NCBI GenBank assembly: GCA_035583355.1
Contig: DATEZQ010000001.1
Coordinates: forward strand, 10,566-74,565
From: Minisyncoccota bacterium
GTDB lineage: Bacteria; Patescibacteriota; Minisyncoccia; Phycocordibacterales; UBA6899
Reading direction: 5' to 3'
Length of the DNA: 64,000 nucleotides
The notes under the pieces were generated by a model that saw nothing but the letters and a program-made list of their open reading frames with translations, ran no database searches and was not told the DNA's origin. Below, one piece after another: positions 23,199-52,884 of the stretch. A program made the position numbers and the translations under genes. Numbering within the stretch: position 1 is the stretch's first letter; each line of letters begins with the position of its first letter.

Positions 23199-24611
23199 TT
23201 ATTCACATTCACCATTATAGACCGGAAGACATCCGATTGATGGTTTTGCGTTAGGGTCCGCATTGAGATCATTCACGATATGCGCATCAAGTTTTGCGCG
23301 AAGCTCGTCCTTCTTTGCGATATTCGTCGCAGCGAGATCGGTGAGTTCTTTAGGATCTGAATTTAGGTCATAAAGCTCCTCCTTTCCCGTTTGTAATGTA
23401 CGGATGTATTTCCATCCATCCGCTGTGCGAATACTGCGCATATGAGTGAAGTCGCGGTAGTCCGTCTCGGTGAAGACGTCATAGCCGGGCTTTGCGGGGT
23501 CAGTGATGTACTCAAGAAGATTTGGTCGACCAGATACTTGCTGAGCGAATTGCGCAGAAGGTGTGACGCCTGCGATCTTGAGGATTGCTGCGGCAGTATC
23601 CATCATACTCACTTGATTCTTTACTACACTACCACCTGCAACACCAGGGATCTTGAAGATGAGTGGAACGCGTACGAGTTCATCATAGAGCGCGTGTCCA
23701 TGGTCAAAACCCTTGTGTTCGTAGAATTCCTCACCGTGATCGGAAACGACGACGATTACTGTCTTGTCGAGGAGTCCACGAGTCTTCAATTCGTCGAGGA
23801 ATCCTTGGAGCTTTGCGTCAGCATCATGTATCTTACTGTCATACCATGCAGTCCAGAATGCAGCATCCTCTTTGGTCATAGAGAGAGGGGCGACGAGCTG
23901 ATCCTCACGAAGCTTTGCCTCTTCTTCCATCGTACCTTTGAATGGGCCAGTATAGTTCGTTGGTGCAAACGTACCCTTGTAGTCTTTTCCGATTCCTGCA
24001 AACTGTCCGTGAAGGTCATAGCCGTGGAAGAACATGAAGAACTTTTGATCCTTTCCAAGGCTATCTAGCCACTGCATTGCATGCTGATTGCTATTTTCGA
24101 GGCCGCCAAACGTGACTTCGTCAGTGTATGCGTCGAAACCTTGGTTGTATCCGAACTTTGCGGAAACTCCTGCATCACCGGTGAATCCTCCCGTTGCGTA
24201 TCCTGCTTTTTTGAATTGTTCTGCGAGTGTCTCGATGTTTGGAGAAATTTCTTTAAGGTTCGAGAGTTTCTTTGTTTCTTTGGTAAAGATCCTGAACTTA
24301 TTGATGACCCCATGTACGCCAGGATAACTACCGGTCATAATAGCCATGAAACCAGGCACCGTCCACGGAGCCGCTGAGATCGATTGCTGAAAGATCGTTC
24401 CTTCGCTCGCAAGCGTATCAAGTACCGGGGTAGTTTTGCGTTCGTAGCCCAAGCTGCTTAAGTGGTCGGCGCGTAATGTGTCTACTCCAATAATGATGAC
24501 GTTACAGTCTTTGCAAGATGGATGCTTATCAAAAAGAGGTGATTTGATTATTGTAAATAGAGCAACAATTCCTATGATTCCTAGTAGTGTAATTTTTGTG
24601 TATGTGTGCAT
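23199..24611 (-). CDS. sulfatase-family (alkaline phosphatase superfamily) membrane-anchored hydrolase, paralog 1
   Basis: N-terminal TM then VIIIGVDTLRADHLS, typical of the sulfatase/LTA-synthase fold. No C-x-P-x-R formylglycine motif seen. Confidence 0.7.
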   Translation of the reverse strand: MHTYTKITLLGIIGIVALFTIIKSPLFDKHPSCKDCNVIIIGVDTLRADHLSSLGYERKTTPVLDTLASEGTIFQQSISAAPWTVPGFMAIMTGSYPGVHGVINKFRIFTKETKKLSNLKEISPNIETLAEQFKKAGYATGGFTGDAGVSAKFGYNQGFDAYTDEVTFGGLENSNQHAMQWLDSLGKDQKFFMFFHGYDLHGQFAGIGKDYKGTFAPTNYTGPFKGTMEEEAKLREDQLVAPLSMTKEDAAFWTAWYDSKIHDADAKLQGFLDELKTRGLLDKTVIVVVSDHGEEFYEHKGFDHGHALYDELVRVPLIFKIPGVAGGSVVKNQVSMMDTAAAILKIAGVTPSAQFAQQVSGRPNLLEYITDPAKPGYDVFTETDYRDFTHMRSIRTADGWKYIRTLQTGKEELYDLNSDPKELTDLAATNIAKKDELRAKLDAHIVNDLNADPNAKPSIGCLPVYNGECE

Positions 24612-24671: not shown

Positions 24672-26225
24672 CTAGAAATATGGCTGTATCTCTAGGGTTG
24701 TCTGTGCTGGCAACTTCATCTTGAATTGCTCACGTTCCCATTGCTTGAGTTTTTCTTCGAGGTAAATGATTTCAGGATTTTCGCGTTCTCTAGTGTAGAT
24801 GTTGTTTGTTTCCCTTGGGTCAGTACCAAGGTGATAAAGCTCATATTCTGAATAAGACTGAGGCGAAGCGCGGAAGTTATTGTGCCATGCCCATCTATCA
24901 AGTGCGCGGTGGGCACGTCGATGTATAAGCTTCCAATCATGCGTGCGGATCGCGACATCCGCAAAATGTTCCTGGTCATCAAGGGCAAGAAAACCCTCAA
25001 GACCCTCATAGTAGGACATCACTCTTTCCCACATGGAAGTGCGGGTGATGTAGACTGCCTCTCGAGGGTTATTTGCGCGCCCCATGATGTACGGAGAGAG
25101 ATCATAACCCTCCGTTTCAATTTGAGGGAATGTAAGGAGTGCGAGGAGTGTGGGGATGATATCGACTCCCGATACAAGGCCGTCTATTCGCCCGGGGTTC
25201 AACATTGGTGACTTGATGATGAGGGGTGTGTGTGTCTGCTCATCAAAAATATCATAGTGAAGAACGTATCCACGTTCATTCAGTCCCTCGCCATGTTCTG
25301 ACTCGAGAATAACAATGGTATTCTTATCGATTCCTGATTCCTTAAGGAAGCTGAAAAGTTGTCCAATTCTCCTGTCGGTCATTAGGATACCATCATCGTA
25401 CCTGCCGACGATGAAATCAAAATCATTTTTTCCGAGCTGTGCTATAGGCTCAAATTTTGCCTGTGGCCCGCGGCGAGCAAAGACTGTATTTTCAAAGAGA
25501 TGATCGACAAGCTTCCATGTGTTCTTCGATGCGGTTTTGAAGTACCCATCATATGTTGAGCTACTGAAGTGGTGCGGCTCTGATTGTCCGTAGGGCCAGT
25601 GCACTGATCCAATTGGTAGCCAGAGGAAGAATGGGCTACTGCTTGCACTTACTACGCTTATCCAATCAATCGAATCACCGATTAGATTTTTGTCACGTCC
25701 ATTGAATTCACTTGCTGTAGCCTCTGAGAATACGTAGCGGTCAAATCCTCGGCTCAAGCTATGGCCAGCATTATATCCTTTGAATTCTGGTGAAGTACCA
25801 AAGGCCGCAGTCTGATATCCATGGTCTTTAAGTAATCGAGCAAGATTCGGTGTCGAGGTAGGGAGTGTCTCTTGGAAATTTACAACACCTGTTGTGAAAG
25901 GGTATTTTCCAGTATGAACACTTACTTCACTGATTGGAGTTAGGTGGCTCGTGGAAAAATAATTATTGAACACAACCGCCTCCTTTGACCATTTGTCGAT
26001 ATGAGGAGTTGTGTCACGGGAATAACCATAGATTCCCATGTGGTCTGCTCGGAGACTGTCGATTGAGATGAGGATGACATTGAGTGGCTTTGCAGGTTTC
26101 GTAGGAAGGAGATATGAAATGCAAAGATACCCTGCGAAGAGGACGAGGGGGATGAGAAGGAGGGCGATGCGGAAGTGGTGGTGGATGCGGCGGGCGTGGT
26201 GTTTGATGCGGGGGTGAAGGTGCAT
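24672..26225 (-). CDS. sulfatase-family membrane-anchored hydrolase, paralog 2 (His-rich N-terminus)
   Basis: VILISIDSLRADHMG motif. In tandem with paralog 1. Confidence 0.7.
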   Translation of the reverse strand: MHLHPRIKHHARRIHHHFRIALLLIPLVLFAGYLCISYLLPTKPAKPLNVILISIDSLRADHMGIYGYSRDTTPHIDKWSKEAVVFNNYFSTSHLTPISEVSVHTGKYPFTTGVVNFQETLPTSTPNLARLLKDHGYQTAAFGTSPEFKGYNAGHSLSRGFDRYVFSEATASEFNGRDKNLIGDSIDWISVVSASSSPFFLWLPIGSVHWPYGQSEPHHFSSSTYDGYFKTASKNTWKLVDHLFENTVFARRGPQAKFEPIAQLGKNDFDFIVGRYDDGILMTDRRIGQLFSFLKESGIDKNTIVILESEHGEGLNERGYVLHYDIFDEQTHTPLIIKSPMLNPGRIDGLVSGVDIIPTLLALLTFPQIETEGYDLSPYIMGRANNPREAVYITRTSMWERVMSYYEGLEGFLALDDQEHFADVAIRTHDWKLIHRRAHRALDRWAWHNNFRASPQSYSEYELYHLGTDPRETNNIYTRERENPEIIYLEEKLKQWEREQFKMKLPAQTTLEIQPYF

Positions 26226-26329
26226 AAAAAGAAGATAAGACTTAGGCTTTGCTTAAGTATAATGCATGATAGGCGCGAGGGGGAGGGGATAGCAATACAA
26301 AAAACGAGGCTGCTATGCCTCGTTTCACT

Positions 26330-27540
26330 TTACTCATAGCGTAGCGCTTCGGCAGGTTCCATGCGTGAGGCCTGTCGTGCAGGAAGAAGTCCTGAGATTA
26401 CTCCGACGACAAAGGTGAGGAAGAGTATGACGAATAGCCCAAAGAAGTCTAACGATGCAAAAGAGAAGAGTCCACGAATTCCATTACTCTCACCGTATTT
26501 TCCAATAAGGAAGGCGAGTAGGATTCCAAAGGTGATACCCAGTATTCCTCCAACAAGTCCGATGATTCCTGACTCCAAGAGAAAAAGCGTGAGTACGTTG
26601 TCGTTTGTCGCACCGATTGCCTTCATGATTCCGATTTGTTTCGTTCGTTCAAATACAGAGGTATACATGGTATTCATAACCCCCACGGCTCCGACAATGA
26701 GCGAGATAAGCGCAATGATGACCAAGACAAGCTCGATGATGGTAAGGACATTGCCTGCAAGTCGTTCTGTTTTTGCAGGTGTTAGTACAGAGAAGTCTCT
26801 TACTTGGTCTTGCTTTCCCAACTCAAACTTGATCTGTTTTGCGATGAGGTTTACATTTGCGTCAGGATAGAGTTTTATATCAGCATTCATTGCCACGCCA
26901 CGAACACCCGTTAGGTTGCGGAATGTCCCAATAGACATGAGTATGATATTATCTGCCATTTGTTCACCGATAGAGGAGAGTACTCCTGCAACTTTCATTT
27001 TCTTCCCGCGAATGATGATCTCATCACCTACTTTTGGATGTCCTTTGAACAAAGCGTTCGCCACTTTATTTCCGATGATGATATCTGTTGAATCTATATC
27101 TGTAGGCCAATGGCCAGACTCGATTTTAATACCTTCGGATTCTTCCATGAGCTCCTTTGCAAGTCCCCATTGTATGCCATTGACGAGCGTGGATTTCTTT
27201 TCACCCATGAACTCTATGTTCATTGATGCAATGTCCTCAATCGCGACGAATTTGATTCCCTCGATTCTTTCAAGGGCGAAGAGGTCTTTTTCCTTGAATC
27301 GATCTCCACCAAAAAGGCTCGCAAGGGGATTACTCTCCTTGCCAGGAAAGACTACGATGAGATCAGAGCCGAACATTTGTAATGTGCTCTTGATTGAGTT
27401 CTGTATTCCATCTCCGAGCGCAAGAATGACCACGACGAGCATGATGCCGATGACAATACCCAAAATAGTCAACCAACTGCGCATCGGGCGATAGCGTATT
27501 CCTTTGAGGATTAAGACTAGGAATTTATTCAACATGATAT
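26330..27540 (-). CDS. ABC transporter permease (MacB/FtsX-like)
   Basis: MacB periplasmic core plus a C-terminal FtsX-like 3-TM domain. The start ATG lies 2 nt after the ATPase stop. Confidence 0.8.
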
Positions 27541-28394
27541 TAGCGTAGTTTTTCATGCACCGTACCATTACGCACCAAACGACCGTCTTTGAAGCTGATC
27601 ACTTGATCGGCCTTTTTTGCGATATTCAGATCATGGGTGACGATGAGCAATGTCTTCTTGTGCACCTTGTGCAGGTCAATGAGGATCTCCAGGATCTTTC
27701 CTCCAGTGACTGAGTCCAGATTTCCTGTGGGTTCATCGCCAAGAAGTATTGCGGGGTCATTTGCGAGGGCGCGCAAAAGGGCGATGCGCTGTTGTTCTCC
27801 GCCAGAAAGTTCCGTGGGTCGATGTTCCATACGATCCTTGAGTACCATCTCTCCAAAAAAGTGAGCGAGCATCTTTTCGTTCGGGGGAGTTGTGGAGAAT
27901 ACGAGTGGAAGGAGGGCATTTTCCTCAGCGGTGAGCCAGGGAATGAGATTGTACTGTTGAAACACGAAACCAAAAGTAAGCGAGCGCAACTGCGCGCGCT
28001 TGTCATCATCAAGATCGGTGATATCTTTTCCTTTAAGAAATATGCGTCCACTCGTTGGTCTGTCGAGTAGCCCCACCATGTTCAGCGTTGTACTTTTCCC
28101 GGAACCCGATGGTCCTACAATGACAGTAAAGTCTCCTTCCCAGATATGGAGGTGTAGCCCCTTTAGTACTTCAGTACGAATCGTTCCTGTGTCGAAGATT
28201 TTCCATACGTCATGCAGTCTCATCAAGGGCTCCTGTTCGTAGCGTGCTGGATCCTTCTTGTATCGTTGAACGCAAAATTTGCCACAGAAGTAGCGTTTTT
28301 GTTTACCACGTCCAAGTGAGGGGGAGTCAGAAAATTCTGCAATGTTCATTCCACAGACGGGGTCGATGATGAGTTTTGTTCCTTCATTGTCCAT
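27540..28394 (-). CDS. ABC transporter ATP-binding protein with N-terminal YHS/TRASH metal-binding domain
   Basis: N-terminal DPVCGM...YFCGKFCVQRYKKDPARY (YHS/TRASH signature). Then Walker A GPSGSGKST, LSGGEQQRIA and Walker B LLGDEPTGNLD. Confidence 0.85.
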   Translation of the reverse strand: MDNEGTKLIIDPVCGMNIAEFSDSPSLGRGKQKRYFCGKFCVQRYKKDPARYEQEPLMRLHDVWKIFDTGTIRTEVLKGLHLHIWEGDFTVIVGPSGSGKSTTLNMVGLLDRPTSGRIFLKGKDITDLDDDKRAQLRSLTFGFVFQQYNLIPWLTAEENALLPLVFSTTPPNEKMLAHFFGEMVLKDRMEHRPTELSGGEQQRIALLRALANDPAILLGDEPTGNLDSVTGGKILEILIDLHKVHKKTLLIVTHDLNIAKKADQVISFKDGRLVRNGTVHEKLR

Positions 28395-28400
28395 AGTGTA

Positions 28401-29867
28401 TCAATCAGCGGGAACAACAATGGTTTGTCCTTCGCTAAGACCATTCATGACTTCGATGGATTCTCCATCAGAGATACCGGTTTCTATTGGGTGTTCCACT
28501 TGCTTGCCATTCTCTATAGTGAACACAAAGCTTTTTCCTTCTTTGCTTATTACTGCAAGAAGTGGGATTTTGAGTACACTATCTTTTGTAGAGACGAATA
28601 TTGAGAGGTCAGCACTCATTCCCGAGCGCAATGGGAGCGCATTTGGCTCGATAAAGACATTAGTGCGATAATATTTGTCACCATCCTTCACTATCTCCTT
28701 TGGCTCGATGGAGAATACTTTTCCGTTTACTGTCGTGTTGGGGAATGCGTCGAATCTGATAAGCACAGTATTTCCGACTGCCTCATTAATCTTTACAATC
28801 TCAAGCTCAGAGATATCCGATTGAATCTTAAAGCTTGTGGTTCCTAATGTGATTGCAGTTACCTCAGGGAGCGCGAGTTCGCTTTTTTCAAGCCAAACTT
28901 TCGTAATTCTTGTGTCCATTGGTGCATATAGTGTCGACTTACGTATCTTCTCTTCTGTGATTGCTATCTGCGAACGATAGCTATTGATCTCCGCTTCGGC
29001 CTGGAGTACTTTCGCGCTCGCTATGGAGGTTTCTCCCTCCTCGGTTGCGAGTTCAGCACGTGCATCTTCAATTGCTTGGCTTTGTTCTTTTAGGGCTTGT
29101 TGATAGGCATTCTGATCATTCGAGTATGCAGCACTCTTTGTGTTTGGTATGTTCAGAATCCACGTTTTATCGACGTAATTTGAGAGGTCCTCTGGGAAAT
29201 CGACAAAGAGCCCTAGTGTTCCAAGTGGGGTAGGGCCAGTTTTGCTGATGAGTATAGGCCCGACTTTTTCAAGTCCAAAGACATGGAGGACGTAGTCCTT
29301 GATGGCGATGTTCTTTTGAGAAGTGGTGAATCTGTAGATTCCTTGTTCTCCTGCATAACGTCCTGTGATGCGAGGAGGAGTGATGTTGTAATTGATCTCA
29401 CTTGGTTCAGCGGTGAGATTATTTGAGAGCAGAGTACTGTATGCATTGTGCACAAGAGTCTCTTGTTTTTCAACGACCGTCGAAAGTCTTGATTCTGTAT
29501 TTCCTGCCTCTGCTTTTCTGATGGATAGATTTGCCTCTGCTTGTTTTTCATCATTGCGGAGCTTTCGGAGCTCGAGCTCAAGATCTTTTGTTTCAAGTTT
29601 CATTAGTGGCTCACCCTGCTTCACTTGCTGTCCTTCTTTGACGAAGATCTTTTCGACGATACCAGAAGCAGGGAAGTGAAGGTCAAAGTCTTTTTCAGTG
29701 ACGATATCTCCGCGCGCACGGACAGTTTCATTGACAGTACCGCGCGTTGCGGTGAAGTAGAGTAGCGGTGGAGTTTCCGATTTGAAATACTTCCCGTAGA
29801 TCCAGAAAGAGACTAGGGAAATTCCGATAAGAGAAATGATAAAGACGATAAAGGAAGTGCGTCTCAT
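28401..29867 (-). CDS. HlyD-family membrane fusion protein (efflux adaptor)
   Basis: N-terminal TM, biotinyl/lipoyl-like hairpin, long coiled coil and beta-barrel. First gene of the MFP-ABC-permease operon. Confidence 0.8.
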   Translation of the reverse strand: MRRTSFIVFIISLIGISLVSFWIYGKYFKSETPPLLYFTATRGTVNETVRARGDIVTEKDFDLHFPASGIVEKIFVKEGQQVKQGEPLMKLETKDLELELRKLRNDEKQAEANLSIRKAEAGNTESRLSTVVEKQETLVHNAYSTLLSNNLTAEPSEINYNITPPRITGRYAGEQGIYRFTTSQKNIAIKDYVLHVFGLEKVGPILISKTGPTPLGTLGLFVDFPEDLSNYVDKTWILNIPNTKSAAYSNDQNAYQQALKEQSQAIEDARAELATEEGETSIASAKVLQAEAEINSYRSQIAITEEKIRKSTLYAPMDTRITKVWLEKSELALPEVTAITLGTTSFKIQSDISELEIVKINEAVGNTVLIRFDAFPNTTVNGKVFSIEPKEIVKDGDKYYRTNVFIEPNALPLRSGMSADLSIFVSTKDSVLKIPLLAVISKEGKSFVFTIENGKQVEHPIETGISDGESIEVMNGLSEGQTIVVPAD

Positions 29868-29920
29868 ACACTATAGTATAGCATAGGTGGAGAAGGATAG
29901 TGGGAGAGGGGGATTCAAGG

Positions 29921-30217
29921 AAGATGCTAGAGAGTGATACGCAGAGATATCTCACGAGCTTTGCTCGCGCACCCTAAAGGGGCCCGCACGGCCAGGCTCC
30001 TCGATTTCATTACATGAACGGTACACCTTTTGGACCTTTTGTATCGAAGACTCACAAAAGTCCTCAAAAGGTCTTGCTCTCTCGCTCCCATAAGAATGGG
30101 ACCCATGAGCAAGAGCTCACCCACGGTTCTCGACGGAACCTCTTCGAGGTTCCTGCTTTCCTCCACGGGAGAGGTGTCCCTCTCCCGACCCCTTCTCCGT
30201 TCGATTCTCTGTAGGGA
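29921..30217. ncRNA. candidate structured RNA/repeat element R1, paired with R2 at 52722-52884; strand not determinable
   Basis: Aligns to the reverse complement of 52722-52884 with conserved blocks and compensatory changes: GGAACCTC-TTCG-GAGGTTCC here vs GGAG-cctacaaga-CTCC there. Other shared helices are cgggagagg-tgtc-cctctcccg and the GCTTTGC helix, here carrying a ~170-nt insertion. The termini CAGAGA...TCTCTGTAGGGA copy the T-stem and acceptor of the adjacent tRNA-Glu. Confidence 0.4.
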
Positions 30218-30269
30218 TTCACAAAATAGAAAAACCTCCCAAGCTTTGCTTGAGAGGTTTTTCATTTTG
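30218..30269. terminator. bidirectional terminator at the centre of a ~45-bp-arm inverted repeat that includes the tRNA-Glu 3' end
   Basis: aaaaacctcccaagc-tttg-cttgagaggttttt. The arms extend outward to gttcgattctctgtaggg on both sides. Confidence 0.65.
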
Positions 30270-30341
30270 TGACCCTACAGAGAATCGAACTCTGATTTAA
30301 GGCTTGAGAAGCCTCCGTCCTAACCGTTAGACGATAGGGCC
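30270..30341 (-). tRNA. tRNA-Glu (anticodon CUC)
   Basis: Manual cloverleaf of GGCCCTATCGTCTAACGGTTAGGACGGAGGCTTCTCAAGCCTTAAATCAGAGTTCGATTCTCTGTAGGGTCA. 7-bp acceptor, D and T arms, anticodon loop TTCTCAA. CCA is not encoded. Confidence 0.8.
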
Positions 30342-30614
30342 AGTCGCTGCGCGAACCAGGCTGGCCATTTTGCTAGAGGAATCGGCCACCGCCGATACAT
30401 TTCCTCGCGCCTTTCTCGCAAAACCTCGTAAGGCTGTCGCAATAGGGCCAATGACATTTCTGAGTTCTTGCTAGTCTGTTTCCTTTCTCACAGAGCCCCG
30501 AAGGGCTTTGCAATAAGGGTTACGGGCAACCACAATTCAGCAGAAAAGTGATCAGCTCGTTCGAATATCATAGCAGATTATTCAAGTTTGTAAAGTGCTA
30601 AAAGGGGTGTAGTA

Positions 30615-36288: not shown

Positions 36289-37092
36289 TTGAAACAGCGG
36301 TCAGATACTATGGAAACGCACATGCAGAATGGAGGAATAATACCGCCTACACCACACCTTGCGCGCGAACGAGAGTCGGCGCAGCTGAAACGATTACAAG
36401 AGGCATATGAACAGGCAATAAGTTGCCAAATGGCTCTTGAACAGAAGATTTCAGACTTGAACGAAACGATTGAGCGATCGGAGCGTAATTTTAGCATTCT
36501 GCAGGTTCAGCTTGATAGCGCACGAAAGAAGATTGCGCGTCAAAATCGATTGCGTGAGGAAGCTGAGGCGCGCTCACTTCGTCATCAATTCATCGATATA
36601 TATAACCTTGAAGGTTTTCGTCATGAGTATAATCGTTTTGTGCGTGAACTTGCGCGTGGAATGTGGCGCTCTGGTACAATCGTCTATTTTGATCTCGATG
36701 GTTTCAAGCTTGTGAATGATCTTCTTAGTCACGATGTGGGTAATGAAATCCTTATTGCCTTTGGGAAATGTCTTACTGATGCGAGCCGACCTGAAGATGT
36801 CGCAGCATGTTTGCATGGTGATGAGTTTGCACTCATACTTCCAAATGCTGAACGTAAGGATGCAGAAGCCGTTATGGATCGTATCCATCGTGCAGCGGCG
36901 AATATCAACGCAGGGGAGCTTGATTACAAGCATATCTTTGCGGAACTTGGTAGAGATCAACTCGTTGCATTTTCATCCGGATATTACACTATTCAGCGGG
37001 AAGATCCCGTGCTCTCTCCAGAAGAAGTGCTTGCACAGGCAGAATCAATGATTCCAAAGTTTTTTGAAAAGCGTACGGCGAGAATACGATAA
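36289..37092 (+). CDS. GGDEF-domain protein with degenerate HGDEF motif, N-terminal coiled coil; paralog A
   Basis: FDLDGFKLVNDLLSHDVGNEIL and CLHGDEFALIL. It is 80-90% nt-identical in blocks to the gene at 37274. Confidence 0.7.
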   Translation: MKQRSDTMETHMQNGGIIPPTPHLARERESAQLKRLQEAYEQAISCQMALEQKISDLNETIERSERNFSILQVQLDSARKKIARQNRLREEAEARSLRHQFIDIYNLEGFRHEYNRFVRELARGMWRSGTIVYFDLDGFKLVNDLLSHDVGNEILIAFGKCLTDASRPEDVAACLHGDEFALILPNAERKDAEAVMDRIHRAAANINAGELDYKHIFAELGRDQLVAFSSGYYTIQREDPVLSPEEVLAQAESMIPKFFEKRTARIR

Positions 37093-37273: not shown

Positions 37274-38056
37274 ATGGCCACGAAGCTACGCATCACACCA
37301 GACGAGAAAACTGCTTTACGGCGTGCTCTCGAAGAGGAGGCCGCTGCGCACAAAGAGACACAAGCAGCGCATGAGCGATCAATCGAACGTCAAATGGCGC
37401 TTGAGCGACAGCTCGCAGATCTACGCGAAACGTTTATGGAGACGGAGCGCAGTTTTAGTATTATGCAGATTCAGCTTGATAGTGCCAAGAAGAAGATTGC
37501 TCGTCTTAGTAAATTACGCAGAGAGGCAGAAGCACGTTCCTTGAGGCATCAATTCATAGATATATACAACCTTGAAGGTTTTCGTCATGAATATAATCGT
37601 TTTGTGCGTGAACTTGCGCGTGGTATTTGGAACTCCGGTACTATAGTCTATTTCGACCTCGATGGATTTAAGCTAGTGAATGATCTTTTGAGTCACGATG
37701 TGGGTAATGAGATTCTCATTGCATTTGGAGAGTGTCTGCATAATGAAAGTCGACCCGAAGATATATCTGCCTGTCTGCATGGGGATGAGTTTGCATTGAT
37801 TCTCCCTGACGCAGATCGCAAGGATGCCGAATCCATCATGGCGCGCATTCATAAGGCTGCTGCGGGTATTAATGCCGGTGATATGGACTACAAACATATC
37901 TTTGCCGAGCTCGGGAGGACTCAGCTTGTCGAGTTCTCTTCGGGATATTTTACGATGCAGCGTGGTGACCCTATCCTCTCTGCAGAGGAAGCACTAATGA
38001 AAGCTGAGGCTACGATTCCTAAGTTTTTCAATCGCCGAAAGCCGAGAAATAAGTAG
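37274..38056 (+). CDS. GGDEF-domain protein with degenerate HGDEF motif; paralog B
   Basis: Same motifs as paralog A. Tandem duplicate. Confidence 0.7.
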   Translation: MATKLRITPDEKTALRRALEEEAAAHKETQAAHERSIERQMALERQLADLRETFMETERSFSIMQIQLDSAKKKIARLSKLRREAEARSLRHQFIDIYNLEGFRHEYNRFVRELARGIWNSGTIVYFDLDGFKLVNDLLSHDVGNEILIAFGECLHNESRPEDISACLHGDEFALILPDADRKDAESIMARIHKAAAGINAGDMDYKHIFAELGRTQLVEFSSGYFTMQRGDPILSAEEALMKAEATIPKFFNRRKPRNK

Positions 38057-38115: not shown

Positions 38116-40815
38116 ATGTCACCGAATTCGAAAGAATATTACAGGCTTGCAATAGCGGACCTTGAGAAGATGCTTGCGACCGATGTAGTGCACGGTCTTT
38201 CTCGTGAGCAGGCGGCAGAACGTCTACAAAAAGATGGGCCAAATGCTTTTGGAAAAGAAGAGAAGATAAGTCCACTTGATCGAATTGTCGATGAGCTTCG
38301 TTCGCCGCTTACTTTTACACTGCTTGTTGCGGGTATTGTGACGACTCTCCTTGCAGAATATGTTGATGCGACGGTGATATTTCTCGCGCTCGTGGTGAAT
38401 GTGCTCATTAATCTCTATCAGGAGGGTCGTGCGTCAAAAGCATTTGCTGCACTTAAAGCAGGTGAAGCTGCTTTTTGCACCGTTATTCGGGGCGGTGAAC
38501 CAAAATTAATTCCTGTTACCGAAGTGGTTGTGGGCGATGTGCTCTTACTCCAGTCAGGCGCAACCGTTCCCGCGGATGCTCGTATTATTGATGCTCATGG
38601 TGCACAACTTAACGAATCAGTGCTTACAGGCGAATGGGCTCCAGTAGTAAAACATGCAGAAGATGTGCCACACCTATTGCCGCTCACTGAACAGAAAAAT
38701 ATGTTGTTCATGGGAACCCTTGTTGCTTCAGGTGTAATCAAGGCTGTTGTAGTGCTCACGGGAGAGCACACTGCATTTGGTGGCATTGCAGCAAGTTTGC
38801 GTACAGTGAAAGCTGCACCGACGCCAATGCAAAAAAATATCGCTGCAATTGCGCGTATGCTTACAGTAATTATTATTGTGGCACTCGTAATTGTATTTTT
38901 GCTTGGAATATATCGAGGAGTCTCACTCACTGAGACATTGTTGATCGCAATTGCAATCGCAGTGGCCGCAATTCCTGAAGGGATGCCAGCTGCAGTATCG
39001 GTTATGCTTGCAATGAGTATGCAGCGTATCCTTGGAAAAGGTGGCCTTGTGCGCAGCTTGCTTGCTGCCGAGACATTAGGTAGTGCAACAGTGATTATTA
39101 CCGATAAGACCGGAACATTGACTGAGGGTCAGATGACACTTGAGCGTGTTGTTTGCTACCACGCACTCACTAGCAGTGAAGCCGGTTTCAAGGAGAAGCG
39201 TTTGCATGAGGAGCACGGTGATGAGCATGATGCGCTCTCGTTTGCATATCTCTCGAGCAATGTCATCATTGAAAATGAGCATGATCAATTTAGGCATCCC
39301 GAATTTCATGGACGTCCCGTTGAAGTTGCGATTGCACGTGCGGCGCATCTTTCTGGCGTTGATATGCGCGAGTTAGAGCGAGACTATCAGCGCATCGATG
39401 CGTCACCGTTCATTTCATCATTACGCATGTCCCTTGCGCTGACCGGTATTCGTGGGATGAAGCACAATCGCCTCATAGGGCTCGGCGCCGCAGAGGAAAT
39501 GCTCGCGCGGGCGCGCGCATACTATGCAGATGGAAAGGCACATCCTATGCATGAGGATGAGCGCAAGAAATTCGAAGAAGCACTTCGTGATGCTACACGT
39601 GAGGGGGTGCGTGTTGTGGCGGTTGGATACGTAGATTCACAGTTAGAAAAACTTCCAACCATACCAGAGGAGATTGAGGAGTTGTTTAGCGGAGAGGGGA
39701 CATTCGTTCTTTGCGGACTACTCTACCTTGCAGATCCGTTACGCAGCGATGTGCGTGCAGCAATCACGACCGCGCGTAATGCGGGAATTCGTGTCATTAT
39801 GGCGACCGGGGATAATCCTGAGACAGCGCGCGCTATTGCTATCGGTGCAGGTATTGTGGCGCATCCTCAAGCACCAGTACTCTTGGGTGCCGAGTTTGAC
39901 GATATGACGGATACGCAACTGCTCGAGCAATTGCGTACGGTAAATGTTTGTGCGCGAATGCTTCCGACACACAAACAACGCATGGCACAGCTTTTGACGG
40001 AATCTGGTGAAGTTGTCGCAATGACGGGCGATGGAGTGAATGACGCACCCGCACTCCGTACTGCAGCAATCGGTATAGCACTTGGAAGTGGTACTGATGT
40101 TGCCAAGGAAGCGTCTGGTCTCGTCCTAACTAATAATAGTTTTGGAATTATCGTGAGTGCGATAGAAGAGGGGCGACGCGCTGTAGATAACATCCGTAAG
40201 AATGTCGCGTACCTTATTTCAACATCGTTTTCTGAGATTATGTTGGTGGTGATGGCACTTGCGCTGGCACTTCCTATTCCACTTTTGCCTACGCAGATCT
40301 TATGGACGAACATGCTCACTGAAGGTTTGATGAATTTCGCATTCGCTTTTGAACAGTCAGAGAAGGGGATTATGACGCGAAGTCCGCGAGTGCACGGTGC
40401 CAGCTCAATGCTTTCCCGTAGGTTTATGGTGTTCATCATTACTATAGGAGTTGTGACAGGTATCATACTTATCGGACTTTATGCGATACTTCATGCACAG
40501 CAGGTGAGTGAATCTGCATCGCGTACCGTGCTCTTCGTGGCACTCACGCTTCTTGCAACGTTTGTTTCATTCTCACTGCGTGACTTGCATACACCACTTT
40601 GGCACATTAAGCCATGGACAAATCCATATCTCCTTGTAGCACTTGTGATTACCTTGCTGGGTCTTGCGGTCGCATTGTTTGTACCACATGTTGCACGTCT
40701 GTTACAACTCGATCCTGCTGGCTTCAATGGATATTTTGGACACGTAGCTGTCGCACTCGCGCTTATGTTTGTCGGGGTCGAGTCAGCAAAGTATTTTATT
40801 CTTCGTAAGAGCTAA
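38116..40815 (+). CDS. P-type cation-transporting ATPase (type II, Ca2+/Mg2+-like)
   Basis: DKTGTLT, TGDNPETA, GDGVNDAPAL and 10 TM helices. 899 aa. Confidence 0.9.
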   Translation: MSPNSKEYYRLAIADLEKMLATDVVHGLSREQAAERLQKDGPNAFGKEEKISPLDRIVDELRSPLTFTLLVAGIVTTLLAEYVDATVIFLALVVNVLINLYQEGRASKAFAALKAGEAAFCTVIRGGEPKLIPVTEVVVGDVLLLQSGATVPADARIIDAHGAQLNESVLTGEWAPVVKHAEDVPHLLPLTEQKNMLFMGTLVASGVIKAVVVLTGEHTAFGGIAASLRTVKAAPTPMQKNIAAIARMLTVIIIVALVIVFLLGIYRGVSLTETLLIAIAIAVAAIPEGMPAAVSVMLAMSMQRILGKGGLVRSLLAAETLGSATVIITDKTGTLTEGQMTLERVVCYHALTSSEAGFKEKRLHEEHGDEHDALSFAYLSSNVIIENEHDQFRHPEFHGRPVEVAIARAAHLSGVDMRELERDYQRIDASPFISSLRMSLALTGIRGMKHNRLIGLGAAEEMLARARAYYADGKAHPMHEDERKKFEEALRDATREGVRVVAVGYVDSQLEKLPTIPEEIEELFSGEGTFVLCGLLYLADPLRSDVRAAITTARNAGIRVIMATGDNPETARAIAIGAGIVAHPQAPVLLGAEFDDMTDTQLLEQLRTVNVCARMLPTHKQRMAQLLTESGEVVAMTGDGVNDAPALRTAAIGIALGSGTDVAKEASGLVLTNNSFGIIVSAIEEGRRAVDNIRKNVAYLISTSFSEIMLVVMALALALPIPLLPTQILWTNMLTEGLMNFAFAFEQSEKGIMTRSPRVHGASSMLSRRFMVFIITIGVVTGIILIGLYAILHAQQVSESASRTVLFVALTLLATFVSFSLRDLHTPLWHIKPWTNPYLLVALVITLLGLAVALFVPHVARLLQLDPAGFNGYFGHVAVALALMFVGVESAKYFILRKS

Positions 40816-52596: not shown

Positions 52597-52667
52597 TACG
52601 GGATCGTCTAAAGGTAGGACAGAGGCCTTTGAAGCCTTTAATCTTGGTTCGATTCCAAGTCCCGTAG
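52597..52667 (+). tRNA. tRNA-Gln (anticodon UUG)
   Basis: Manual cloverleaf of TACGGGATCGTCTAAAGGTAGGACAGAGGCCTTTGAAGCCTTTAATCTTGGTTCGATTCCAAGTCCCGTAG. Anticodon loop CTTTGAA. CCA is not encoded. Confidence 0.8.
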
Positions 52668-52721
52668 CAATGGCCAAAAAGAACGCGAAAGCGTTCTTTT
52701 TGTTTGCCATTGCTAACGGGA
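52668..52721. terminator. bidirectional terminator at the centre of a ~43-bp-arm inverted repeat that includes the tRNA-Gln 3' end
   Basis: aaaaagaacgc-gaaa-gcgttcttttt. The arms extend through agcaatggcc/gccattgct to ttcgattccaagtcccgt on both sides. Confidence 0.65.
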
Positions 52722-52884
52722 CTTGGAATCGAACGGAGAGGGGTCGGGAGAGGAATACCTCTCCTGTGCAGGAAAGCAGGAGTCTTGTAGGCTCCGTCGA
52801 GAACCGTGGGTTCTTGAAGAGCTTTGCTGTGCGAGGCTCCTCTGGAGTGCGCACGCAAAGCGAGTGAGATATCCAAGCCCCATA
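52722..52884. ncRNA. candidate structured RNA/repeat element R2, paralog of 29921-30217
   Basis: Conserved blocks with R1 (see R1). Terminal helix GGGGCTTGG/CCAAGTCCC, or GGGACTTGG/CCAAGCCCC on the other strand. The termini copy the tRNA-Gln T-stem and acceptor. Confidence 0.4.

Follow-up and report, generated by a model that had tools for sequence, protein, structure and literature searches.

A YHS domain on the motor subunit of a MacB-type exporter from a Candidatus Paceibacterota bacterium: a possible soft-metal switch

What might a small, cysteine-bearing domain of the metal-binding YHS/TRASH type be doing at the front of the motor subunit of an ATP-binding cassette (ABC) exporter? The question is raised by an operon within a 64,000-nucleotide stretch (hereafter the window) of contig DATEZQ010000001.1, assembly GCA_035583355.1, from a Minisyncoccota bacterium, in which the minus strand from 29867 to 26330 holds three tightly packed open reading frames (ORFs), coding in turn for an adaptor, the ABC ATPase and a permease of MacB_PCD/FtsX type. 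An identical ATPase sequence is on record in a Candidatus Paceibacterota metagenome-assembled genome, and the locus reads as a three-gene transcription unit of a Candidatus Paceibacterota bacterium, an uncultivated, ultra-small member of the candidate phyla radiation (CPR), for a MacAB-like tripartite exporter built in the Gram-positive style. An initial annotation, made from the DNA letters alone, had proposed that the ATPase carries such a domain, that the fusion is unusual and that it points to metal (Cu/Zn) gating or sensing of the exporter. The domain appears to be genuine; the pump that bears it is probably metal-regulated, and in the window genome it is not obviously linked to copper. 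That the domain acts as a cytoplasmic regulatory switch on the ABC motor, responding to a soft metal and most likely to Cu(I), is a proposal which we judge to have about an even chance of being right.

The YHS domain of the ATPase

The ATPase (284 residues, 27540..28394, minus strand) begins MDNEGTKLIIDPVCGMNIAEFSDSPSLGRGKQKRYFCGKFCVQRYKKDPARYEQEPL and then passes directly into the first strand of its nucleotide-binding domain (NBD); the peptide quoted in the initial annotation, IIDPVCGMNIAEF...YFCGKFCVQRYKKDPARY, is indeed found at its N-terminus. Within this extension, residues 9-53 (28236..28370) form a YHS-type domain of 45 residues, which a proline-containing linker (P56) of about five residues joins to the first β-strand of the NBD (residues 58-284, 27543..28223), just before the A-loop residue F67. 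The YHS ligand motif D-x2-C-G-M...(F/Y)-F-C-x3-C is present, its putative metal ligands being D11 (28362-28364), C14 (28353-28355), C37 (28284-28286) and C41 (28272-28274), with M16 of the CGM motif at 28347-28349. All five of these residues, together with G15, are invariant in 93 aligned sequences, in which V13, F36, F45, P49, F52 and P56 are conserved at 90% or more, the linker proline being elsewhere termed invariant as well. The strict four-cysteine TRASH signature, C-x2-C-x19-22-C-x3-C (Ettema et al. 2003), is not found, the first cysteine being replaced by aspartate to give D11-x2-C14-x22-C37-x3-C41, a replacement that is common in YHS/TRASH domains (PMC4626032). In this respect, the YHS/TRASH cysteine signature first reported for the protein holds as a YHS signature of the Asp-Cys3 kind and not as that of a strict four-cysteine TRASH domain.

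Against the Pfam YHS model, PF04945, the window ATPase scores 18.2 bits (E=0.0025) as a full protein and 23.5 bits (E=5.7e-5) over residues 1-57, both of which are sub-threshold. The assignment is made despite these scores because the N-termini of the family do match PF04945 (36/36 at E<=0.01, best E=5e-15) and because the ligand residues are invariant. TRASH and FCS zinc-finger models match the same N-termini more weakly, and precomputed annotations place PF04945 together with PF00005 on most homologues. As a single sequence, the 57-residue N-terminus finds no match among PDB sequences; a profile built from the N-termini of the family does reach phenol hydroxylase, in its YHS region (2inp_A, E=2e-4), with a weak match to ribosomal protein L24e. 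In AlphaFold2 (AF2) models the domain is predicted with a local confidence (predicted local distance difference test, pLDDT) of 85-95 within the full ATPase and of 83 in isolation, and adopts a TRASH-like fold in which strands 26-29 and 32-35 form a β-hairpin and helix 39-47 carries the C-x3-C pair. Foldseek aligns the isolated model with 2inp_A (TMq 0.64), with the YHS region of toluene monooxygenase and with L24e (TM ~0.58), at E-values which are not significant, as is expected for 57 residues. The domain is thus recognised as YHS by its motif, its predicted fold and the hidden Markov model at the level of the family, and not by the window protein's own score; the profile match that the initial annotation anticipated is present, weak for this ATPase and strong for its relatives.

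Any such assignment necessarily depends on the extension being translated at all, and the same annotation had named a mis-called start as what would overturn it. A chance cysteine motif in a spurious 5' extension, with translation really beginning at M58, could be argued from the position of that ATG just ahead of the first NBD strand and from the sub-threshold Pfam score. Were M58 the start, 177 nt that are conserved and look like coding sequence would go untranslated. Moreover, the TGA of the adaptor gene lies in frame two codons before the ATPase ATG at 28394, across an intergenic gap of 6 nt, and therefore no earlier ATPase start is possible. The extension is also widely conserved: a homologue search in a collection of 5.8 billion proteins gave at least 8,000 matches, and among the best 120 of these, at 56-100% identity, nearly all keep it, the named ones being Paceibacterota, Nealson-, Harrison-, Magasanik- and Yonathbacteria, all of them CPR/Patescibacteria. 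Over 100 clusters of homologues (55-85% identity) keep it, with the D/C/G/M/C/C residues invariant, and it is present in every full-length homologue; a few homologues are annotated from 'MDL...', that is, cut at the Met of the CGM motif. With the YHS fold confidently predicted as well, a mis-called start with a chance motif is exceedingly improbable, and is ruled out by the conservation, the 6-nt gap and the upstream in-frame stop taken together. The extension is part of the protein, as first proposed.

The pump and its closest relatives

Behind the YHS domain, the ATPase has the features of a MacB-type motor. It matches ABC_tran (E=1.4e-30), and its top NCBIfam models are LolD (E=1e-62) and MacB (E=3e-60), both under their equivalog cut-offs. 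A motif scan places the A-loop at F67, the Walker A GPSGSGKS at 94-101 (the canonical motif that had been noted behind the cysteines), the Q-loop at 145-147, LSGG at 196-199, Walker B with the catalytic Glu at 216-221 and the H-loop at H254 (253-255), all at positions that are invariant across the family alignment. Hydropathy reveals no transmembrane segment, and the subunit is therefore cytoplasmic. The AF2 model (pLDDT 85.6; predicted TM-score, pTM, 0.82) finds through Foldseek the E. coli MacB NBD (5lj9, 43% identity, E=5e-26), and superposes on the ATPase domains of MacB, MJ0796, Spr0694, YbbA and LolD at 39-46% identity. Among the matches listed, the alignments take in some 222-237 columns of the 284-residue protein and leave the first ~57 residues unaligned, such that none of these solved MacB-family ATPases covers the N-terminal YHS residues.

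The permease is encoded at 26330..27535 on the minus strand, giving ~401 residues from the ATG at 27535. The longest ORF, from 27568, runs across the ATPase stop; the ATG at 27535 is the likelier start, homologues being of 400-401 residues. Matches to MacB_PCD (E=3e-29), FtsX (E=4e-20), MacB structure 5lil (E=2e-37 over residues 12-400) and Spr0695 (5xu1_M, E=1e-29) are accompanied by four hydrophobic segments (17-48, 256-292, 313-348 and 353-388, by hydropathy), with an extracytoplasmic domain of ~205 residues between the first and second transmembrane (TM) segments.

The adaptor, a membrane-fusion or periplasmic adaptor protein of 488 residues (28401..29867, minus strand), is YknX/MacA-like, matching HlyD_D23, Biotin_lipoyl_2, HlyD_3 and TIGR01730 RND_mfp (E=1e-39), with precomputed BSH_YknX, CzcB_C and YknX_C domains, a PDB match to MacA (4dk0, E=3e-14, residues 254-485) and a single N-terminal membrane anchor at residues 1-26 by hydropathy. 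Family conservation supports the same call outside residues ~123-271, where a variable segment of ~150 residues stands in place of the short coiled-coil hairpin of MacA; across 21 homologues none of the alignment columns in this segment is conserved, nor does it match MacA structures, and it may be a lineage-variable tip domain that touches the cell wall or a surface layer. In terms of potential metal ligands, the 21 adaptors are all but free of Cys and have 0-4 His and 2-8 Met, with no metal-ligand clusters, and 17 permeases, likewise with almost no Cys or His, have no conserved extracytoplasmic cluster of Met, His or Cys. No paralogue of any of the three pump genes occurs within the 64-kb window.

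The Pfam, NCBIfam, PDB and Foldseek matches bear out the gene order first given, of HlyD-family adaptor, ABC ATPase and MacB/FtsX permease, and from its sequence the pump is assigned to the type VII ABC class of mechanotransmission exporters, in a form where adaptor, cytoplasmic ATPase and 4-TM permease are distinct proteins. It resembles the MacAB-TolC systems of E. coli, A. actinomycetemcomitans and A. baumannii in an NBD that is 41-44% identical and superposable, in a full-length permease match to MacB, down to the four TM segments and the periplasmic core domain, and in an adaptor that matches MacA. It differs from them in that ATPase and permease are separate chains where E. coli MacB is fused, and in the long variable insert of the adaptor and the N-terminal YHS domain of the ATPase. 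There is no gene for a TolC-type duct in the three-gene operon, no search aimed at ducts having been made, and a TolC-type outer-membrane duct is not expected in the CPR cell envelope. In other words, by all criteria that sequence can address, the pump fits the MacB-type family, except for the fused-chain, TolC-dependent form seen in E. coli. The closest layout is that of S. pneumoniae Spr0693-0694-0695 and B. subtilis YknXYZ, with which it shares split ATPase and permease, adaptor-first order and YknX-type adaptor domains, and, for the pneumococcal system, structural matches to the chains of 5xu1. The ATPases of both systems differ in being without a YHS domain; their known roles lie in resistance to antimicrobial peptides or toxins, and they are not known to be linked to a metal regulon.

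Copper-stress neighbourhoods and the function of the domain

What the domain responds to, if it responds at all, may be approached through the genes that accompany the fusion in other genomes. Loci were gathered by exact-protein look-up and by scans of species-representative genomes and of Joint Genome Institute (JGI) metagenomes, which used an alignment of the N-terminus plus the junction; the scan patterns were narrow and family-specific, and returned at least 10 true fusions from genomes and at least 10 more from metagenomes. A motif filter gave at least 22 distinct fusion loci, including the window. The named loci among the 22 are all CPR/Patescibacteria except for one contig of 6.5 kb that bears the label Gammaproteobacteria, probably through mis-binning. 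A search of protein representatives with the N-terminal profile gave 14,916 matches, the top of which is dominated by proteins with 2-6 tandem YHS repeats, and provides no fusion count. Many public proteins have 3-6 tandem YHS domains (185-1011 residues), and these outrank single-domain proteins in such a profile search.

Wherever flanks exist, the trio of adaptor, ATPase and permease is kept in the relatives, with the adaptor directly upstream. Copper-stress neighbours, namely a CsoR-type repressor, a Cu(I) P1B ATPase or DsbD/thioredoxin proteins, occur at 10 of the 22 loci. An unbiased Pfam count over the 204 neighbour ORFs within ~6 kb, which agrees with a seeded tblastn search, returns E1-E2_ATPase 8 times, Trns_repr_metal (the CsoR family) 7 times, DsbD_TM at least 5 times, HMA and AhpC/Redoxin 5 times each, Cupredoxin 4 times and HMBD 3 times; methyltransferase and FAD-oxidoreductase families reach counts similar to those of the copper-stress families. 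The P1B ATPases, found at 8 of the 22 loci, lie directly downstream of the pump and co-directional with it in L096, L010, L012, L017, L018 and L089, directly upstream in L011 and within a divergent cluster in L091. Four of them combine HMA with CPC, YNxxxxP and MxxSS, the signature of a Cu(I) P1B-1 ATPase, and one combines HMBD with CPH; in two HMBD-type ATPases, YN and MxxSS are present and the TM4 motif is not matched by a regular expression.

A CsoR-type repressor with an operator feature is found in L096, L091, L010, L012, L016, L017 and L018. The palindrome ATACCCC-N3-GGGGTAT lies between a TTGACA -35 element and the -10 element upstream of csoR at six loci, L096, L012, L017 and L018, together with L010 and L016, where the spacing varies or a half-site is seen; in L091 there are three boxes, one of them in the divergent csoR/adaptor intergenic region. 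L017 reads box-csoR-adaptor-ATPase-permease-copA, its first four genes only a few bases apart and copA set off by 74 nt; L096 reads box-csoR-dsbD-redoxin-...-adaptor-ATPase-permease-P1B ATPase. The repressor fingerprint is C-H-H in most loci and C-H-C in L016, the classical one being Cys-His-Cys; C-H-H is also the fingerprint of Thermus CsoR. At L089, a repressor (805-1089) carries Cys-Tyr-Cys and has a different upstream palindrome. The effector specificity of the CsoR-family repressors next to the pump may therefore vary among copper, another metal and persulfide. The same ATACCCC-N3-GGGGTAT sequence is seen some 300-500 nt upstream of stand-alone or other YHS genes (L045, L047, L052, L059, L134 and L168) in Planctomycetota and other phyla, which suggests that membership of CsoR regulons is a general trait of YHS proteins.

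CPR genomes of ~1 Mb typically hold at most one or two P1B ATPases. The association of pump and copper genes is strong, because chance predicts well under one P1B ATPase among 204 neighbours, although the loci are not independent of one another. The metal (Cu/Zn) link suggested for the exporter is accordingly supported by the csoR, Cu-P1B and dsbD clusters of its relatives and not by the window locus, where no such cluster occurs; gating by metal is a step of interpretation beyond either.

In the reading that we favour, the YHS domain would bind a soft metal, most likely Cu(I), in the cytoplasm through D11, C14, C37 and C41, and perhaps M16. The metal-bound domain would then tune ATP binding or hydrolysis, such that the pump becomes active when cytosolic metal rises, and this control would form a post-translational layer above that exerted by CsoR. 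In this regard, the domain is well placed to affect nucleotide binding or NBD closure, because its short tether leads straight to the strand before F67. Export of the bare metal ion is improbable, since no Met, His or Cys clusters occur on the extracytoplasmic side of the pump; the substrate would more likely be something which has to be cleared from membrane or envelope when copper or thiol stress sets in. Copper itself as the substrate was considered, and was dropped as the leading idea on the composition of adaptors and permeases. That the cargo is envelope damage or copper-loaded material is speculation, prompted by the recurrent DsbD, thioredoxin and redoxin neighbours. In its most complete form the proposal is of a copper-gated type VII ABC pump in CPR/Patescibacteria, in which a Cu(I)-loaded YHS domain licenses ATP hydrolysis and the pump removes material damaged by or loaded with copper from the outer face of the membrane, alongside the adjacent CopA and DsbD/thioredoxin systems; this whole chain of events we put forward tentatively, as rather unlikely to be correct in every part.

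Several known systems bear comparison with a metal-responsive motor of this kind. The YHS adenylyl cyclase of M. phlei (Linder 2015) is copper-activated, with proposed ligands D178, C181, C204 and C208; it has the identical D-x2-C-x22-C-x3-C spacing and a YHS domain that is likewise joined by a short linker to a nucleotide-using catalytic domain, and it differs in that its YHS is C-terminal, its output is a cyclase and not a transporter, and Cu(II) was supplied in vitro (PMC4626032). P1B copper ATPases with HMA, HMBD or YHS/TRASH domains also carry a small cytoplasmic, N-terminal, Cys-based regulatory domain on a transport ATPase. Their motor is of P-type and not of ABC type, and metal is their substrate, whereas the outward-facing parts of the present pump have no metal-ligand clusters. 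In the ABC importers MetN (with its C2 domain) and ModC, a ligand-binding domain on the ATPase couples a cytoplasmic ligand to the motor, by trans-inhibition. The likeness here is one of concept, MetNI being among the structural matches of the NBD; the MetN and ModC domains are C-terminal, of unrelated fold, bind the transported substrate and inhibit import, whereas the YHS domain is N-terminal, zinc-finger-like and sits on an exporter.

Several observations pull the other way. In a neighbour-joining tree of the ATPases, the window groups with L009 (83% identity), L002 and L006, and copper contexts are scattered through the remaining branches; none of the four members of this subclade has csoR or Cu-ATPase neighbours. 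The 64-kb window contains no csoR, P1B ATPase, HMA, HMBD or second YHS domain, and a search of it for CsoR boxes gave 2 matches against 0.87 expected, which is chance level. Its sole P-type ATPase (38116-40815) is of P2 type, with Cation_ATPase_N and Cation_ATPase_C. The window ATPase lies below the PF04945 gathering score of 30.3, albeit with a match that spans profile positions 1-45 of 47, and its subclade has the weakest Pfam YHS scores in the family, yet keeps every invariant ligand residue. The fusion loci, moreover, are not phylogenetically independent, the base rate of P1B/csoR adjacency in CPR genomes is an estimate from general knowledge, and the neighbourhood association shows co-regulation of the pump and not the function of its YHS domain. 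A direct role in copper export is not supported by the composition of adaptor and permease. Sazinsky and colleagues reportedly found in 2006 that the YHS region of phenol hydroxylase binds a structural zinc. The YHS domain of toluene 4-monooxygenase binds no metal (PMC4626032). With regard to the window itself, the overall picture is of the family's least copper-linked branch, a subclade which has lost the copper neighbourhood while the ligand residues stayed, and the YHS domain of a pump that is outside any cop operon may still be metal-responsive.

The most serious competitor is that the domain is a structural zinc finger, in which Zn(II) held constitutively by the Asp-Cys3 set would stabilise the NBD, aid its dimerisation or dock a partner, with no sensing involved, and the copper-operon context would reflect only the physiology of the pump. 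The persistence of the domain and its invariant ligands in a subclade without copper neighbours is in keeping with this, as are the confident, compact prediction of the domain and its very short Pro-containing linker. So too are its closest solved relatives, the YHS region of the phenol hydroxylase α-subunit and L24e, which are structural sites; L24e binds a metal ion (PMC4626032). These TRASH-fold proteins, with the toluene monooxygenase α-subunit, give the best profile and structural matches to the N-terminal domain, and are unlike a switch in that their sites are either structural or empty, and the proteins themselves take no part in transport or regulation. Yet purely structural Cys4 zinc sites do not typically have an invariant Met beside the first Cys (CGM), nor an Asp at the first Cys position, no characterised MacB, LolD, FtsE, HrtA or BceA ATPase needs such a module, and the sole YHS fusion to have been tested biochemically is regulated by copper (PMC4626032). 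On balance we regard a purely structural role as somewhat unlikely, although it is a possibility of real substance.

Two further explanations would keep the cysteines functional without making the domain a metal switch on the motor. The domain might act in the manner of CopZ, capturing Cu(I) and either passing it to a P1B ATPase or sequestering it at the membrane while the ABC motor goes uncontrolled; a P1B ATPase is often directly adjacent, YHS-, HMA- or HMBD-type domains occur on the neighbouring P1B ATPases, and there is no standalone CopZ-like gene among the recurrent neighbour families, the 5 HMA matches corresponding largely to the four HMA-bearing P1B ATPases. It is hard to explain, however, why a chaperone should be covalently fixed to the ATPase of another transporter in every member of the family, and the subclade of the window keeps the fusion with no P1B ATPase nearby, such that we consider hand-off or buffering improbable. 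Still less probable, in our estimation, is a thiol redox switch, in which the three cysteines would bind no metal and their reversible oxidation would turn the pump on or off in answer to oxidative or disulfide stress, a stress that copper too brings about. The neighbours do repeatedly include genes for DsbD_TM, thioredoxin, AhpC/Redoxin and pyridine-nucleotide disulfide oxidoreductase, but the Asp-Cys3 geometry fits the tetrahedral metal site of the TRASH fold, and the effect of copper on the M. phlei cyclase is reversed by ethylenediaminetetraacetic acid, which argues for binding and not oxidation (PMC4626032).

Were the metal-switch reading to hold, this would be the first ABC exporter motor to be switched directly by metal and the first member of the MacB family in copper homeostasis. 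The known regulation of type VII (MacB-like) motors is transcriptional or by way of partner proteins, and a metal-binding domain inside the ATPase would constitute a new mode of motor control. In CPR bacteria, whose genomes are tiny, hardly any stress system has been characterised by experiment; the proposal here would give them a copper-defence unit, in the form of a csoR-controlled module of P1B ATPase, thiol-redox proteins and YHS pump. The family is large and its proteins small and soluble, which would make them amenable to biochemistry with no need to culture the organisms. Should the domain instead turn out to be only a structural zinc finger, it would offer a clean case for parting metal-sensing YHS domains from those that serve folding alone. 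As to novelty, no paper on a YHS-MacB ATPase fusion was found in the literature searched, and in Campylobacter FetA the YHS domain is on a separate membrane protein and not on an ABC ATPase. The architecture is nonetheless already visible in databases, because the automatic JGI pipeline labels some members 'ABC-type lipoprotein export system ATPase subunit/YHS domain-containing protein'. The fusion is thus unusual when set against characterised pumps, as first claimed, and is common among CPR bacteria.

DNA and genes around the operon

The probable promoter-proximal region of the operon lies at 29868..29900 on the minus strand, as judged from the sequence. A -10-like TATACT (29880-29875) ends 7 nt 5' of the adaptor ATG, and in L009 a TATAAT stands 6 nt before the ATG (~8520); neither a Shine-Dalgarno sequence nor a CsoR box is found between 29868 and 29900. 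With a -10-like hexamer placed 6-7 nt before the adaptor ATG in both genomes and no Shine-Dalgarno sequence, the mRNA of the operon may be leaderless. At the other end, a consensus scan gives a terminator-like hairpin with a T-run (26301..26326, minus strand) directly 3' of the permease stop. Terminator consensus matches in the region number 7 against 3.9 expected, an enrichment which is not significant, and it is by its position that the hairpin is taken to be the end of the three-gene unit.

Further upstream, between the terminator of a tRNA-Glu(CTC) gene (30269-30341, minus strand) and the adaptor, there is an unusually structured non-coding region of 360 nt (29868-30228), with minimum free energy z-scores of -4.8 (minus strand) and -3.5 (plus strand); scanned against Rfam, it matches no family and gives only chance matches of hairpin type. 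A perfect 18-nt inverted repeat (30199-30216 and 30273-30290, 56 nt apart) has as one of its arms the T-arm/acceptor 3' end of this tRNA-Glu, and its arms bracket the terminator hairpin of the tRNA gene (30263-30229), giving a hairpin of ~90 nt to which microRNA models match spuriously. An 89-nt piece (30119-30207) recurs at 86% identity 3' of the only other tRNA gene in the window, tRNA-Gln (52597-52668), within 52726-52873 and in the same orientation relative to the tRNA, and could be a tRNA-downstream element or a novel small RNA. The tRNA-Glu gene with ~400 nt of flanking sequence (30119-30600) is 81-86% identical in the closest relative, L009 (7977-8384), although the block there lies the other way round with respect to the pump operon. 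A promoter-like site at 30594-30567, with 10/12 matches and an extended TG, would give a leader of ~220 nt before the tRNA-Glu.

On the 3' side of the pump are two paralogous, membrane-anchored genes of the sulfatase family (PF00884), at 24672-26225 and 23199-24611 on the minus strand, a pair which occurs in the same position only in L009 among the relatives. In place of the CxPxR formylglycine motif of canonical sulfatases, both carry D[ST]LRADH, and the two may be phosphotransferase- or phosphodiesterase-like rather than sulfatases. On the plus strand, tandem GGDEF genes (36289-37092 and 37274-38056) are directly followed by the P2-type cation ATPase (38116-40815) and an RmuC gene; the GGDEF pair is read as cyclic-di-GMP signalling in a reduced CPR genome.

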